Below, in pieces: positions 1,473-54,370 of a stretch of DNA of 64,000 nucleotides. Positions within the stretch are counted from its first letter, which is position 1, and every line of letters begins with the position of its first letter. The translations under genes and the position numbers were made by a program. The notes below the pieces were generated by a model. It saw only the letters and a list, made by a program, of their open reading frames with translations, was not told the origin of the DNA and did not search any database. The DNA comes from Eledone cirrhosa (taxonomy: Eukaryota): assembly GCA_964016885.1 (NCBI GenBank), contig OZ024749.1:23002001-23066000 (forward strand), written 5' to 3'.

Positions 1473-1803
1473 TTAGAAAGTGAGGTTTTTTTTACAAAAT
1501 AAAAAATAACCGAGGTATCCTACACGAGTGAAAGTATAAAGAAAAAGAGATGAAATCGAAAATGCAACTGAAGTCTTATTTTTTTTTAAAATATATATAT
1601 TTATTTGGTTAAAAATATATATATTTAGTTGAGATGGAGGGTCTGTGGTTTTTCTCACAGAAAAACCACAGACCCTCCATCTCAACTCACCTTTTGAAAA
1701 GCAGAAGAACTGCGAAACCGGTAAAGGAACCAAATAAATATATATATTTTAAAAAAGAATAAGACTTCAGTTGCATTTTCGATTTCATCTCTTTTTCTTT
1801 ATA
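1473..1803. mobile_element. Foldback insert in (TA)n carrying a hammerhead (non-autonomous PLE/retrozyme-like)
   Basis: Inverted repeats 1535-1610/1728-1803 and 1627-1655/1659-1687 (3-nt loop); unique tail 1473-1534; (TA)n on both sides. Confidence 0.75.
1690..1727 (+). ncRNA. Type I minimal hammerhead ribozyme, U3-A8 core variant
   Basis: CCTT-TTGAAAA-GCAG(aagaa)CTGC-GAAA-CCGG-TA-AAGG: stems I and II pair perfectly, palindromic stem III, GUA triplet. Confidence 0.65.
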
Positions 1804-2137
1804 TATAAATATATATATATAATATATATATATATATATATATATATATAATATATAATATATATATATATATATATATATATATATATATATATATATA
1901 TTCTATATATACATATATCTATCTATATCTCTCTCACTATATATATATACATATATATATATATATATATATATATATATATATATATATATATATATAT
2001 ATATATATATATATATATATATATACATATATATATAGATACATGTGTATATATATGCATGCATATATGCATACATATATGTATATATTTATATATATAT
2101 ATATATATATATATATATATATATATATATATATATA

Positions 2138-3042
2138 TATAAAGGTTAACATATACATAAAGTTATAAATATATATATGTTGCAACTGGTCACTTTTAAG
2201 CTCGATGAAGAATTAATAAATTAAAAAATCAGAGCAATATATCATAAATCATGTCTTTAGAATCATCAGATAAAATATATACTATTTCTTCTTCTAATTA
2301 GCATAATTAACCATTATATGAAGAAATTAGAAGAAGAAATAGTATATATTTTATCTGATGATTCTAAAGACATGATTTATGATATATTGCTCTGATTTTT
2401 TAATTTATTAATTCTTCATCGAGCTTAAAAGTGACCAGTTGCAACATATATATATCTATAACTTTATGTATATGTTAACCTTTATATTTAATAATCTCCC
2501 GATATGTTGAGATTAAATTTGGCGATATTTGGCTGCGCTTTCTAGCAGCAAGCCTTCCCACCGTAAGCAACCAATCACATTCTTTCTGGTTTGATCACAG
2601 CCACATCGCGATTCTTAGCCATTTTTGAATCTATTTTTGGCGGGATCGGAGTGAAAAACTAGATGTCTGATTTTGAGTTTGTCTCCTGATGAATCCTAAC
2701 TCAGGACTTTTCTATTATTTGGATGTCTAAAAATGGGGATGAAACCATGGTAGAGATATAATTACGGTATGTACGCATTTCTTCTAAGTTTAATTTTACA
2801 CCTAATTGTGTATGGTTGATGATATATTTAGTCAATTTCTACATGCTGTCGAAATGTTGCATAAATACTCGATTGGGGCCACCGCGAAGAGGCTACGTTC
2901 GGTTATTTGTCGGAGATTTCTCCATAAGAGCCTTTCTTCTTATAGCTTGATCTAATTGATTTTTTATATGGTTAATTATGCTAATTAGAAGAAGAAATAG
3001 TATATATTCTATCTGATGATTCTAAAGACATGATTTATGATA
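2138..3042 (+). mobile_element. Retrozyme-like element: ~658-bp partial tandem plus inverted arm
   Basis: Inverted repeat ~2138-2298/2325-2486; direct repeat 2325-2385/2983-3042; internal hammerhead; (TA)n flanks; no ORF. Confidence 0.75.
2681..2757 (+). ncRNA. Type I hammerhead ribozyme with long stem II loop
   Basis: GTCTC-CTGATGA-ATCC...GGAT-GAAA-CCATGG-TA-GAGAT. Confidence 0.8.
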
Positions 3043-3768
3043 TATATATATATATATATATATATATATATATATATATATATATATATATATATATATA
3101 TATATATATATATATATATATATATATATATATATATATATATATATATATATATATAGGGAGAAAGGGAGAGAGAGAAAGAGTGAGAGAGTGAGAGAGA
3201 GAGAGAGAGAGAGAGAGAGAGAGAGAGAGAGAGAGAGAGTGAGAGAGAGAGAGAGAGAGAGAGAGAGAGAGAGAGAGAGAGAGAGAAATATAAAACACAA
3301 TAAAATGATGAAATTAAAAATAACATAAAAGAGAATGTCTGCGAAACTCTCTTCATGTAATTTTCTTAGTGGGAATTTCATCATCATCATCATCATCATC
3401 ATCATCATCATCACCATCATCATCTTAATTATCATCATCAGCATCGTCATCACATTTATCTCCGGCGCCGATAATATGATCGCCATTGCCAAAATATAAC
3501 TACAACCAGTGCTATCACTCACATCACTGTCATGAACATCATCAATATCGACATGACGGCCTTCATCATTTCCATCCCCATCTTCAACATCCAAAACATA
3601 ATCAGTATTGTCACGGGTTCTGATAAAGCCACACAGATTAGAGACGATTAGTCAAATACACTGATAACGAAATTTTAATCATTTATATATAAATATACAT
3701 ATATATATATATATATATATATATATATATATATATATATATATATATATATATATATACATATATAC

Positions 3769-3912
3769 AAAATTAAAGTAAGGGTGCCATGATAACGAAA
3801 TTTTAATCATTTACATATATATATATATATATACATATATATATATACATAATTAAAGTAAGGGTGTCATGTCCGAGAGACTTGCTCCATATCCACTGTA
3901 GAATATGCTTTT
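3769..3912 (-). mobile_element. 3'-tail fragment of foldback family A (as 7767-8369 and 15197-15470)
   Basis: 3851-3912 is the reverse complement of the tail at ~8300-8365 and ~15408-15470 (ATTCTACAGT..ATATG..GTCTC..ACCCTTA); terminus partly duplicated at 3769-3792. Confidence 0.6.
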
Positions 3913-4053
3913 GATATATATATATATATATATATATATTAAAACAGTTTAAAGTTTAACCAAAGAATCGCTGCTTTCACCCTTAACGGGATCTTCTGAA
4001 ACTAAAAAAATCAATCTGTGAATGCAGAAGTAAATATTACGAAAACGTTGCAC

Positions 4054-4203
4054 TGGGAGATCCTAGTTGAGGCTAGATCGTATAACGGAAATAAAAAACC
4101 ATGTGATATCTGCACCGCTGAAGCCCGGGAAATACTCTACGCCAAAGACCACATCTTAAACAAAAAATGTGAGGCACTTTCGGTTTGTAAACATAAATTG
4201 CAC
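4054..4203 (+). pseudogene. C-terminal fragment of a PLE GIY-YIG endonuclease
   Basis: WEILVEARSY..CDICTAEAREI..LNKKCE..CKH fits the W.I...A..Y..C..C..E...I..LN...E..C.H end seen in some PLE endonucleases (recognised from memory). Confidence 0.65.
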
Positions 4204-52107: not shown

Positions 52108-52325
52108 GGGCGGTAGATTGGCAGAATCGATAGAGCGTCGGAAATATGTTTCACAGCTTAGAGTTACGGCCCTTTGCGTTCTGAGTTCAAATCCCGCCGA
52201 GGTTAGCTTTGCCTTTCAGCTGTACGGAGTCAATAAAATATAGAACCAGTAATGCACGGCGGCCGATTTAATCGACTTTCCCCTCCTCTAAAATTGTTAG
52301 CCTTTTGCCTAAATCAGAAACCCTT
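52108..52325 (+). mobile_element. tRNA-derived SINE
   Basis: Family match. Confidence 0.82.
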
Positions 52326-52723
52326 ATCTAACAGTTGTGGATTTTGAACAAGATATGACCATTCTTCTTTCAACTAGGTTGCTAGAACACAACAAATAGC
52401 TACTGGGTATATTTTATGCATATTCTGAATAAGTGATGCGTGTTCAATGCTTAATATTTTTCTGTATACTGCAGTTTTAGTAACTATTGTCTGCGGAATA
52501 TTACTTAGAAACGGAACCGTCCAGGAGTTGGTTACGTGAGGTGTTTTTACCAAAACACTGTCATAATACTCCTTGAATAACTATATTGTGTGCACTCTGA
52601 ATTTGAGCATGCAGTCTCACAACTTGCAAGCGTATTGTCTCATTGAATGAATGGGTCATGGCCCGAGTTTAATGAAATACCTTCAGTGACTTTCGTAAAA
52701 CGTGTATCAATATCATTAATGGA

Positions 52724-52900
52724 GTGGAGACTTCTGGTGTTCTCGGCTCAAGGACCACCTCCCTATTCACCACCATGGGTACGGAGTTGGCACCCCGAAG
52801 GTGTGAGTCTCACGAGATGGAATGGCTCTTCCAACGCGTCTCCCTCATCATCCTCCGGCGAAACTCCTTCTCTATTTTGTCTGCCGGGACCACGGGGCGG
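52724..52900 (+). pseudogene. C-terminal fragment of a CRE-like non-LTR retrotransposon (RLE end)
   Basis: ETSGVLG..WLFQRVSLIILRRNSFSI resembles the ET.G..G / QR.S....RGNA motif. Confidence 0.6.
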
Positions 52901-52933
52901 CCAGCGCATGGGCTCCTATTTGCATATAATAAT

Positions 52934-53118
52934 TTTTTTCTATTTTTTGCACAAGGCCAGCAATTATCTCAGTGCATTACTGGTACTTTGTTTTATCGAC
53001 CCCGTAGGGATGAAAGGCAAAGTTAACCTCGGCAGGATTTGAACTCATACCGTAAAGGGACGTAACTCTATGCTGCAAAGCATGCCGTCCGGACCTCTAC
53101 CGATACTCCAATCCACCG
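52934..53118 (-). mobile_element. tRNA-derived SINE with 18-bp TSD
   Basis: TSD CTATTTGCATATAATAAT at 52916-52933/53119-53136. Confidence 0.88.
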
Positions 53119-53779
53119 CTATTTGCATATAATAATGAGAGAGCGGGAGAGTGACAGAGACGGAGACAGTGAGTTAAATTGAAAGAATATCAACATGAAG
53201 TCAACAGCCTCAGGAAAAGACATTCTTGTGAATTATAATTAATTTAAAAAAGAAGGCGATTTGAAATATCATTCTTATACAATAAGATGAGTTAATATAA
53301 CAATTATACTAAAAACAATGGTGGAAAAGTTGAAATTTGCTTAGGGTTTCGGTTATAGTGTTTAGGTTCTGGGCGATTATTTTGTAGGAAAATTATTTTA
53401 AATAGATATTAAGAGGTAAACAATAATATGTCAATGGGAAGGTCAAATGCCATTAGAGGTCAATTTTAATAATATTTACGTCACAACGTGAAAGGTCATA
53501 CCGTGGGCTGCTCTGATGAGGGGTGATAGATATAAATCTACAAATAAAATATTAGTAAATTACTGATCCCATTATTTATCTATCTAACTATCTATCTGTC
53601 CGCCTATCTATCTATCTATCTATCTATCTAACTATCTATCTATCTATCTATCTATCTATCTATCTATCTATCTATCTATCTATCAACCAATCTATCTATC
53701 TATCTATTTATCTATTTATCCATATATATATATATATATATATATATATATATATATATATATATATATATATAAATAT

Positions 53780-54370
53780 ATATTGTTATACTTTGGGAGG
53801 GTCATGTTGCCAATAAGAAACACACACACCAGCTGCTTTCACTTCAATTTATTATAATAAATTTATAAATTTAGGAATTTATACATTTCTGGTTGGTTCG
53901 TTGGTTCCACAACCAGATAGTTGTTTATATATTGTCAAAGTTCTTTCGTCACACATTATGTGACCTCTTCAGTGACTGGGGATTTTTTTCTTTGTTTTTG
54001 TGCCTCTCCTTTGTTCTGTCCTACACCATTCTGTCCTACGCCATTTTGTTTCTGAGAAACAAAATGGCGTAGGACAGAACAAAGGAGAGGCACAAAAACA
54101 AAGAAAAGAATCCCCAGTCACTGAAGAGGTCACAGAATGTGTGACGAAATAACTTTGACAATATATAAACAACTATCTGGTTGTGGAACCAACCAACCAA
54201 CCAGAAATTTATAAATTCCTAAATTTATAAATTTATTATAATAAATTGAAGTGAAAGTAGCTGGTGCGTGTGTTTCTTATTGGCAACATAACCCTCCCAA
54301 AGTATAACAATATCGGTTTCAACACACGTTTTCAGATAAAGAATCTTGCTAAACAAATTCAGAAACGAAA
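53780..54370. mobile_element. Third, non-coding foldback copy of the main PLE family
   Basis: Arms 53780-54053/54055-54313 (1-nt loop); 57-nt tail 54314-54370; hammerheads 53934-53976 (-) and 54117-54159 (+). Confidence 0.92.

Follow-up and report, generated by a model that had tools for sequence, protein, structure and literature searches.

Head-to-head ends of Penelope-like elements and ORF-less tandem repeats in the Eledone cirrhosa genome suggest copying of one RNA source from both sides of a cut chromosome

Introduction

The endonuclease-bearing (EN+) Penelope-like elements (PLEs) are most frequently found with a head-to-head inverted, 5'-truncated pseudo-LTR (pLTR), and a tail is present on one of the inverted ends (PMC3846280, PMC8557442). 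Partial tandems also occur, the start site lies inside the pLTR, and (TA)n targets are described for Naiad and Hydra (PMC3846280, PMC8557442). Members of the Hydra clade are described as having RWK and DKT motifs, CxxC and CxH motifs around EN, no CCHH motif and a (TA)n target. The origin of the tandem and inverted PLE structures is named an open problem (PMC8557442).

The Poseidon PLE of Anolis, when assayed in vitro, cuts and extends both strands of an AT-rich target (PMC11167929). Two internal starts of reverse transcription (RT) bound its tail and are used alike on the top and bottom strand, the RNA template is uncleaved and a dimer is predicted (PMC11167929). The non-LTR retrozymes of animals lack an ORF; they are tandem units, a few hundred bp long, that contain a type I hammerhead, and PLEs have been proposed as their mobilisers (PMC7229834; bioRxiv 10.64898/2026.07.22.740005). 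The minimal hammerheads of PLEs have a short palindromic helix III and an extra base at 9/10.1, and in Schistosoma pairs of hammerheads on opposite strands, 100-700 bp apart, have been ascribed to truncated PLEs (PMC4209133).

Materials and methods

The window is the whole stretch of 64,000 nt analysed here, positions 23,002,001-23,066,000 of the forward strand of Eledone cirrhosa contig OZ024749.1 (GCA_964016885.1). The untargeted genome sample of 800 kb (L331-L410) consists of 80 stretches of 10 kb, taken at round coordinates from the larger contigs, and genome totals derived from it are rough. Arms were mapped on one genomic reference copy for each family; S denotes the short end of a family and T its tail end. 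Targeted loci, several of whose queries spanned the junction, were excluded from fold-back frequencies. A SINE of similar abundance served as control for folding back and for TA ends. Hammerhead cores were located with custom patterns because Rfam at its gathering threshold gave nothing. Inserts and families are designated by start positions.

Results

Layout of the inserts in the window

All 15 positions at which the earlier note had placed head-to-head inserts with outward ends begin an insert with two divergent arms, and mapping on the family references reveals one S arm and one T arm, both directed outward, in each of them (Table 1); the S arm of the 15027 insert, 16 nt long, was read directly from the sequence. 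A tail of 37-165 nt is present on one end of each insert and the other end is short. The claim that the inserts lie in TA tracts is correct for both flanks in 12 of the 15, with a TA-like flank on one side only at 3942, 15550 and 31213. Arms within an insert are 86-99% identical (those of 15550 differ by about 5%), end at family-specific ends and are not continued by mirrored flanks. That every insert joins two copies of one 3' end applies as far as the divergent arms go, but not to 13851, which was rejected as an inverted repeat: its arms do not overlap (reference positions 1311-1481 and 1501-1656), and the inverted match nearby, at 14188-14252, is a separate fragment.

The inserts belong to 11 families, of which five are 3' stubs of separate ORF-bearing PLEs, four are ORF-less tandem units and two are others (15027/33799 and 31213), with no parent ORF found for the latter two among the loci fetched. 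For 7767/15197 and 15027/33799, polarity was assigned only from fixed outer versus variable inner ends. Single arms of these families are also present in the window, for example at 6837-6994 and 30660-30775. When all family ends are compared with each other, only 14394 and 16077 are related, and no partner PLE for the ORF-less units was identified by this comparison.

Table 1. Coordinates of the inserts and their features in the window.
Feature	Position	Strand	Remarks
Family A PLE insertion	10075..13788	-	tailed long arm 10075-12969 (minus) and inverted short-end arm 12970-13788 (plus; 819 nt, 99.4%); blunt junction 12969/12970
Family A ORF	10626..12965	-	open 780-aa frame: RT and C-terminal GIY-YIG, CX4CX2C linker (Neptune/Nematis type)
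Family A tail, 56 nt	10075..10130	-	on one arm only
Family A minimal type I hammerhead	10306..10340	-	mirror copy 13579-13613, plus strand
Family A older foldback	34063..36283	.	short end left, tail end right; cores 34255 (-), 36063 (+)
Family A stub foldback without ORF	53780..54369	.	short left, tail right; cores 53972 (-), 54121 (+)
Second ORF-bearing PLE, 3' stub	1474..1803	.	tail arm left, short right; U3/A8 core hammerhead 1694-1723 (+)
Third ORF-bearing PLE, 3' stub	15543..15969	.	short arm left, tail right; core 15780-15808 (+), left-arm core mutated; centre at the family's 5' hot spot
Hydra-like PLE	3937..5445	+	inverted short arm 3937-4052, then ORF C-terminus, 3' UTR, tail end; no canonical hammerhead core
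Second Hydra-like PLE stub	13850..14166	.	short-end arm left, tail arm right, non-overlapping; core at 13999 (minus) in left arm, long helix II
ORF-less ~658-bp tandem unit	2139..3045	.	inverted tail arm 2139-2314, then 1.1 units to short end, including one whole 658-bp unit; hammerhead 2686-2752 (+)
ORF-less 466-bp tandem unit	14394..14898	.	short arm left, tail right; 3-nt microhomology at centre; hammerhead missing here, present in the family's full unit
ORF-less ~442-bp tandem unit	16077..16570	.	tail arm left, short right; hammerhead 16312-16342 (+)
ORF-less ~542-bp tandem unit (7767)	7765..8368	.	short arm left, tail right; no ribozyme found
7767 family, second copy	15195..15470	.	short arm left, tail right
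15027 family, abundant and short	15029..15168	.	tail arm left, 16-nt short arm right; no core found
15027 family, second copy	33801..33962	.	tail arm left, short right
Older hammerhead family (31213)	31208..31424	.	short arm left, tail right; both arms begin within ribozyme; full core in a single copy, 6837-6994

ORF-bearing families

Longer copies of five of the 11 families (A, 1473, 15550, 3942 and 13851) contain, upstream, an RT/GIY-YIG ORF belonging to the family itself, as seen for the GIY-YIG ORF of the 1473 family in locus L160 and the ORF of the 15550 family in locus L066. The single ORF of family A, with RT plus GIY-YIG at the C terminus, is organised as in EN+ PLEs. Its RT domain matches RVT_1 with an E-value of 2e-4, below the cut-off, and contains the YVDD motif; the GIY-YIG domain is above the cut-off in the copy at 34464-35021, and 224 homologues were found at E<=1e-20. 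Against a 1045-aa homologue, the frame in the window starts at residue 258 and lacks about 257 N-terminal residues; judged from this alignment the window copy is 5'-truncated. In families A, 1473 and 15550 the CX4CX2C linker agrees with the CX2-5CxxC pattern that precedes GIY-YIG in Neptune and Nematis. Families 3942 and 13851, which align with each other at E-values of 1e-8 to 1e-11, show RWR in two copies, together with CxxC..E and CxH, in decayed copies and are candidate members of the Hydra clade.

Hammerheads and ORF-less tandem units

A strict type I hammerhead pattern matches the window five times, while 50 shuffles gave 0.12 matches on average, and a looser core list adds the cores of PLE families. 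The inserts had been described as hammerhead-bearing; a core is contained in eight of the 15 (1473, 2138, 10074, 13851, 15550, 16077, 34063 and 53780) and not in the other seven. Inserts 14394 and 31213 belong to hammerhead families and begin 3' of the core or inside it. Eight of the 11 family references have a core, while that of 3942 is degenerate and none was found in 7767 and 15027; a canonical core was not found in the references of 3942, 7767/15197 and 15027/33799. Only in 10074, 34063 and 53780 is the core intact in both arms, and where it lies in a single arm or spacer its outward orientation is true by construction. Among 70 hammerheads found de novo in the untargeted 800 kb, an inverted copy lies upstream of 25 and downstream of none, which supports the proposed outward polarity.

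Rfam listed no hammerhead among the 150 matches shown of 223 for the window, and at the gathering threshold it gave no match in 10 loci. The motif of the 14394 family scores 37.7 bits against Hammerhead_HH9 (E-value 2.4e-8), short of the gathering score of 52. Minimum free energy folding of seven hammerheads gave z-scores of -0.5 to -1.9, by itself no evidence. Like the minimal hammerheads of PLEs, those of E. cirrhosa share the short palindromic helix III and the extra base at 9/10.1 (PMC4209133). They differ in a U3/A8 core in one family and a very long helix II in two. The U3/A8 core is a tolerated covariant; a literature search for a hammerhead with this core returned no match.

The tandem units of families 2138, 14394 and 16077 are ~658, 466 and ~442 bp long, with longest open frames of 79, 95 and 92 amino acids and one core per unit. 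In having no ORF and one type I hammerhead in every tandem unit, they are organised as non-LTR retrozymes are, and the three families are retrozyme-like, with ribozyme activity and circular RNA as predictions. Family 7767 departs from the published retrozymes in that its tandem unit has no detectable ribozyme (no core by pattern). A twister-P1 match in it was rejected, its score being 16 bits where the cut-off is 67, Rfam matches there being at chance level only.

Orientation and end pairing in the genome

In the untargeted 800 kb, after nine rows matching unrelated flank in one reference had been dropped, the 11 families gave 43 outward foldbacks, one inward and 76 single copies, so that the inverted, 5'-truncated head-to-head copy known from EN+ PLEs is found across all of them. 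The control SINE gave two outward foldbacks and one inward among 117 copies. With S and T positions picked from the same data that were counted, 32 of these foldbacks pair a short end with a tail end, one has two short ends and one two tails, nine having one end unassigned; independent choice would give short with tail in at most one half of the 34 classifiable cases (p 7e-8). The targeted loci contain 125 such mixed pairs, five with two tails and one with two short ends. The one-sided tail of EN+ PLEs is thus present in 32/34 untargeted, 125/131 targeted and 15/15 window foldbacks. TA is found at 97/135 S or T ends, 15/78 5' ends and 2/234 SINE ends, the background being 4.8%.

Among young copies, 33 of 64 are inverted, a lower bound, and 30 are single arms. 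The suggestion that inversion is the usual product is supported to the extent that inversion is very common. The reach of the two arms was compared in 89 untargeted foldbacks of the short+tail type: the one extending further 5' is the short-end arm in 40 and the tail arm in 13, the two are equal in 36, and overlap between them is absent from 18.

Arms are closer within loci than between loci in 124 of 141 cases. At subfamily marker sites, which are linked, the arms agree at 803 and disagree at 104, compared with 359 concordant sites expected if independent; in family 3942 there is no such concordance (9 vs 7, 5 expected). Three subfamily haplotypes of the 14394 family have the same centre; each haplotype is common to both arms and to the tandem arrays of its subfamily, which implies that the foldback is rebuilt at each insertion.

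In intervals of 14-20 nt, again chosen from the data counted, the 5' ends of three families cluster (14/27, 5/5 and 67/98 arms), with a TATA-like motif 21-29 nt ahead of the cluster. Families A (5/45), 3942 (10/48) and 13851 (2/15) have weak hot spots of this kind or none. The cleavage site of the ribozyme was rejected as a general RNA 5' end, a cluster 7-24 nt 3' of it being present only in the 14394 family, among targeted hits. Junction microhomology is weak: at least 2 nt in 8 of 44 junctions and 0-1 nt in 8, with apparent inserts in 28, some of which are reference mismatches. Neither target site duplications nor empty sites are readable in (TA)n, the search for duplications giving seven weak candidates, mostly simple repeats.

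Discussion

The foldbacks directly display divergent arms, the pairing of a short with a tail end, TA at their outer ends, shared markers and variable inner junctions. They are head-to-head ends of PLEs and of tandem repeats that lack an ORF and share the PLE footprint, and their fixed outer ends, one short and one long, suggest that both sides of a cut chromosome likely copy the same RNA source. The best reading, which we regard as probable, is twin priming from two internal start sites that are fixed; priming from both ends of the target, as advanced in the earlier note, is the best-fitting mechanism. The PLE enzyme would cut the (TA)n tract on both strands, with the same RNA source as template each cut end would prime a cDNA, the short start serving one end and the tail start the other, and the two cDNAs would be joined in the middle, possibly via short microhomology or small inserts. 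One of the two starts would be assigned to each target end. The template could be one RNA copied twice by strand displacement, or two RNAs from the same locus on an enzyme dimer. The many stubs with fixed centres would be explained if the RNA 5' end, at a promoter inside the pLTR, is where both cDNAs run off. Against twin priming stand the roughly half of young copies that are single-armed, and concordance of arms that could stem from gene conversion after insertion.

In L1 twin priming, both target strands prime cDNA, producing a 5' inversion with non-overlapping arms and an opportunistic second start. Priming on both strands is common to the two systems, whereas in E. cirrhosa overlap of the arms is usual and each of the two starts is fixed.

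As with the uncleaved Poseidon template, the E. cirrhosa arms run through the ribozyme site. Poseidon belongs to a different clade, and its main text gives no account of an inverted join (PMC11167929). Its starts show no strand difference (PMC11167929), so that strict pairing is not given by itself, whereas the E. cirrhosa genome indicates one start per target end. Collision of the tail cDNA with a complex at the short site is no more than suggested by 18 of 89 tail arms, which stop at or before the short end.

Published PLE models, as set out in PMC3846280 and PMC8557442, invoke self-priming or EN-mediated resolution, and no end-pair counts were found there. In the latter, RT has a single start and the short end results from cutting or trimming of a longer intermediate by the endonuclease, ahead of its joining to the second target end (PMC8557442), which we think rather unlikely here. 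Strict pairing would then need no assignment of two starts, and most short ends lie at AT- or TA-rich spots that an AT-cutting enzyme could cleave. However, both ends were observed as RT starts in vitro (PMC11167929), and two cDNAs are still required, since in many foldbacks the arm with the short end extends further 5' than the tail arm or has no overlap with it.

A snap-back, in which one strand folds and copies itself into a palindrome (antisense template, PMC3846280), would explain the nearly coincident inner ends of 36/89 foldbacks, the markers shared by the arms and the small palindromes seen at some centres. A cDNA begun at the tail cannot, however, template a short-end arm that lies further 5' (40/89) or wholly upstream (18/89), a tail could not be provided by a cDNA that starts at the short end, and coincident centres sit at family hot spots where single arms stop too. 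Snap-back is already contradicted as the sole route and is improbable overall.

The earlier note proposed the family A PLE of the window as the candidate mobiliser of a guild of many small ribozyme RNAs. The four ORF-less tandem families with a PLE footprint must indeed borrow an enzyme, and within the twin-priming reading this would come from a PLE. As for that particular family, five families have ORFs of their own, of two types, the copy in the window lacks its 5' part, neither the length nor the sequence of the tails is uniform, and no significant sequence match links the ORF-less units to any ORF family; we consider the guild very unlikely. The claim that the palindromes are retro-products and not MITEs fared better. 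Copying as whole units, as in MITEs or foldback DNA transposons, would suit the recurrent centre and size in families 15550, 14394 and 15027, but the outer ends are unequal in place of equal, fixed terminal inverted repeats, inner junctions vary, tandem units or RT ORFs follow on from the arms, and one centre recurs on three subfamily haplotypes, which largely refutes a reading we give very little credence. An assembly or library artefact is the least credible of all: although the window's own family A joint is bridged by none of the read records listed and the raw reads are Illumina, the arms have diverged and stop at family-specific points without mirrored flanks, the similarly abundant SINE seldom folds back (3/117), and raw reads of another sample contain seven divergent joints of the same kind at other family A positions, several resting on only one or two start points.

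The layout itself has already been described for PLEs and is mostly known. Published EN+ elements share with those of E. cirrhosa the head-to-head layout, the one-sided tail, partial tandems, (TA)n and a start in the pLTR, although tails are 37-165 nt here against the 30-40 nt reported (PMC3846280, PMC8557442). The inverted pLTR, two RT starts in vitro and opposite-strand hammerhead pairs are likewise published, which removes much of the novelty first claimed. No report of the strict short+tail pairing, or of a PLE footprint on retrozymes, was found in the literature searched. End-pair and arm-extent counts tell the published models apart and make a clear prediction for the existing in vitro system. 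Animal retrozymes have been tied to PLEs by co-occurrence and pLTR phylogeny (PMC7229834; bioRxiv 10.64898/2026.07.22.740005); the E. cirrhosa units carry the PLE insertion footprint itself, and such a footprint on ORF-less hammerhead repeats supports mobilisation by PLEs more directly.

More tentatively, and with somewhat less than even confidence, PLE integration might be programmed twin priming, with one of two fixed starts per cut end. A transcript started in the pLTR would then yield a short palindrome with fixed centre by default, hammerhead retrozymes would have captured the two-site signal, and the genome would hold about 10^5 MITE-like palindromes of retro origin. Scaling 43 per 800 kb to 3.0 Gb gives a rough 160,000 palindromes, for 11 families only, which structure-based tools could misfile as MITEs. 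Hairpins in the tails reach z <= -2.9 in three of the 11 families.

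Divergent inserts and their ends

Self-comparison of the window, part of a 3.0 Gb genome with many simple repeats, reveals divergent arms at fifteen inserts (starting at 1473, 2138, 3942, 7767, 10074, 13851, 14394, 15027, 15197, 15550, 16077, 31213, 33799, 34063 and 53780), which belong to 11 families named by start position. The 11 queries were each represented by up to 30 genomic copies; a real copy served as the reference of its family, and all arms were mapped onto these references. In each family the 3' ends are fixed at two sites, 37–165 nt apart, termed S (short end) and T (tail end). 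As the earlier note described, all inserts have both ends pointing outward. Each has one S and one T end (15 of 15). The flanking TA that the note reported is present on both sides in 12 inserts and on one side only in the other three. A hammerhead core is contained in eight of the 15 inserts. Insert 13851 is not an inverted repeat, because its arms do not overlap. End-to-end nesting (Table) is also common in the fetched loci, as if each insertion left a new target.

Further features of the window; the entries given as hammerhead core or single arm are of related families and were not listed in the earlier note
Position	Feature	Remark
1694–1723	U3/A8 hammerhead core	U3/A8 instead of C3/G8; also in loci L373 and L400
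3848–3909	Hammerhead core or single arm	
5436–5513	Hammerhead core or single arm	
5665–5886	Hammerhead core or single arm	
8401–8499	Hammerhead core or single arm	
13785–16620	Seven inserts of six families, end to end	Only TA or CT tracts between
20700–20977	SINE copy with adjacent inverted partial copy	Rare for this SINE family
33449	Hammerhead core or single arm	
37843	Hammerhead core or single arm	
40440–41180	Decayed LINE fragment, zf-RVT domain	No relation to foldbacks
42052–42459	Decayed LINE fragment, zf-RVT domain	No relation to foldbacks
51173–52087	Decayed LINE fragment, zf-RVT domain	No relation to foldbacks

Raw Illumina reads from another sample, checked over 12560–13270, contain seven joints linking an antisense to a sense part, all at positions that differ from the window's joint, and three further strand-change joints within one part, their direction not given; several of the joints rest on one or two start points. 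No bridging record for the window's own joint is among those listed. An artefact is made less likely by the divergence between the arms and by ends that are specific to each family.

Abundance in the genome

The feature is real and abundant. An untargeted sample of 80 stretches of 10 kb, searched with the 11 references, yields 43 outward foldbacks, one inward foldback and 76 single arms, excluding nine rows that match unrelated flank inside one reference; the SINE control gives two outward and one inward among 117. Foldbacks make up 33 of the 64 copies that include a piece of at least 88% identity, a lower bound, as some single arms are split pairs. A reference-free scan finds 70 hammerhead motifs, versus 0–1 in shuffles. 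An inverted copy of the downstream 70 nt lies upstream of 25 and downstream of none; it is absent for 45, of which 11 are in one tandem array and two are likely false. TA follows 97 of 135 S or T ends, versus 15 of 78 5' ends and 2 of 234 SINE ends.

Origin of the foldbacks

Twin priming is known from L1. Here, twin priming at two fixed starts is probably the origin of the foldbacks, on the combined evidence of pairing, arm extents, shared source, rebuilding, stop windows and junctions; priming from both target ends, as first suggested for this window, is thus the best fit. The untargeted foldbacks comprise 32 S+T, one S+S and one T+T pair, with nine unassigned, and pairing is strict, since independent choice permits S+T in one half at most. 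In a de-duplicated set of 89 S+T foldbacks (untargeted, from random stretches and flanks), the arm that extends further 5' is S in 40 cases and T in 13, with equal reach in 36; in 18, the arms do not overlap. Two separate cDNAs are needed because the S arm often extends further 5' or overlap is absent. On the evidence as a whole, EN trimming is unlikely to have produced the ends, and snap-back formation of the foldbacks is less likely still.

For 124 of 141, arms are closer to each other within a locus than between loci; marker sites agree between arms at 803 and differ at 104, with 359 expected. The two arms derive from one source, with gene conversion as the alternative and family 3942 as the exception. 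In family 14394 the same centre is seen on three subfamily haplotypes, so the foldback is rebuilt at each insertion. At this centre the S arm holds the position closer to the ribozyme cleavage site in 5 of 5 cases (loci L091–L093, L101 and L106), hinting at the order of two priming events.

Arm stops cluster in a narrow window in three families (14 of 27, 5 of 5 and 67 of 98 arms), 21–29 nt after a TATA-like motif. In 1473 and 15550 the stop window lies inside a longer element, some 40 nt to the 5' side of the ribozyme core. To judge from these windows, fixed-centre stubs would arise where the cDNA runs off the 5' end of the RNA. The arms continue across the ribozyme cleavage site, which fits an uncleaved RNA template. 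Junctions are blunt, have 1–4 nt overlaps or contain short inserts, and lend the mechanism weak support.

Inverted pLTRs with a tail on one, most frequently head-to-head, are described in PMC3846280, where self-priming is proposed; PMC8557442 describes the same layout at (TA)n targets and terms the mechanism unresolved. Minimal hammerhead pairs on opposite strands (PMC4209133) and cleavage plus extension of both strands from two internal starts (PMC11167929) have also been described. The literature search found neither strict S+T pairing nor twin priming for PLEs (Penelope-like elements), although supplements and the 2005–2006 PLE papers may bear on this. The present counts offer a quantified, testable handle on an open mechanism.

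Families with reading frames

The families are new, of known kinds. The frame of family A, the PLE family of inserts 10074, 34063 and 53780, encodes RT and GIY-YIG and includes a CX4CX2C linker; among named relatives, the protein is closest to one from Octopus vulgaris (67% identity), which makes a cephalopod host probable. The window copy is young (99.4% identity between arms), with no direct repeat upstream. Longer copies of 1473 and 15550 extend into GIY-YIG ORFs of their own, which share about 47% identity with one another and 28–30% with family A over the aligned part. Hydra-like ORFs, following the motif definitions in PMC8557442, are reached from 3942 and 13851. The U3/A8 core is conserved throughout family 1473 and is also found in a second family.

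The inserts are therefore mostly stubs from several autonomous PLEs, together with retrozyme-like units, and the proposed guild of small ribozyme RNAs is not supported. Nor is there support for the window's PLE as local mobiliser: its copy starts at the point matching residue 258 in a homologue of 1045 aa, and four other families have their own ORFs. Retrozymes are regarded as likely PLE passengers in PMC7229834 and bioRxiv 10.64898/2026.07.22.740005. The main text of the octopus repeat annotation (PMC13282606) does not contain the word "ribozyme".

Tandem units and remaining families

Tandem units of 2138 (about 658 bp), 14394 (466 bp), 16077 (about 442 bp) and 7767 (about 542 bp) contain no frame longer than 95 aa. 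There is one hammerhead per unit in the first three; the ribozyme search found none in the 7767 unit. All four insert as a pair of arrays, one inverted and one forward, whose S and T ends lie in (TA)n. For families 15027 and 31213, no parent element was found among the fetched loci.

The ATGCAAAT octamer, part of snRNA-type promoters, lies 88–100 nt before the hammerhead core in the units of 16077 (locus L036) and 14394 (L110), followed in both by a shared AT-rich box; in the 7767 unit it is on the opposite strand. A promoter of this type is used by newt hammerhead satellite 2 (cited in PMC2220036).

Another tandem hammerhead array, of 11 copies with a 310-bp period, ends in a TA tract in the untargeted sample (L390). 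At L137–L150 (G000:C4, about 175.57–175.64 Mb), the 658-bp hammerhead unit is repeated in tandem over at least 60 kb.
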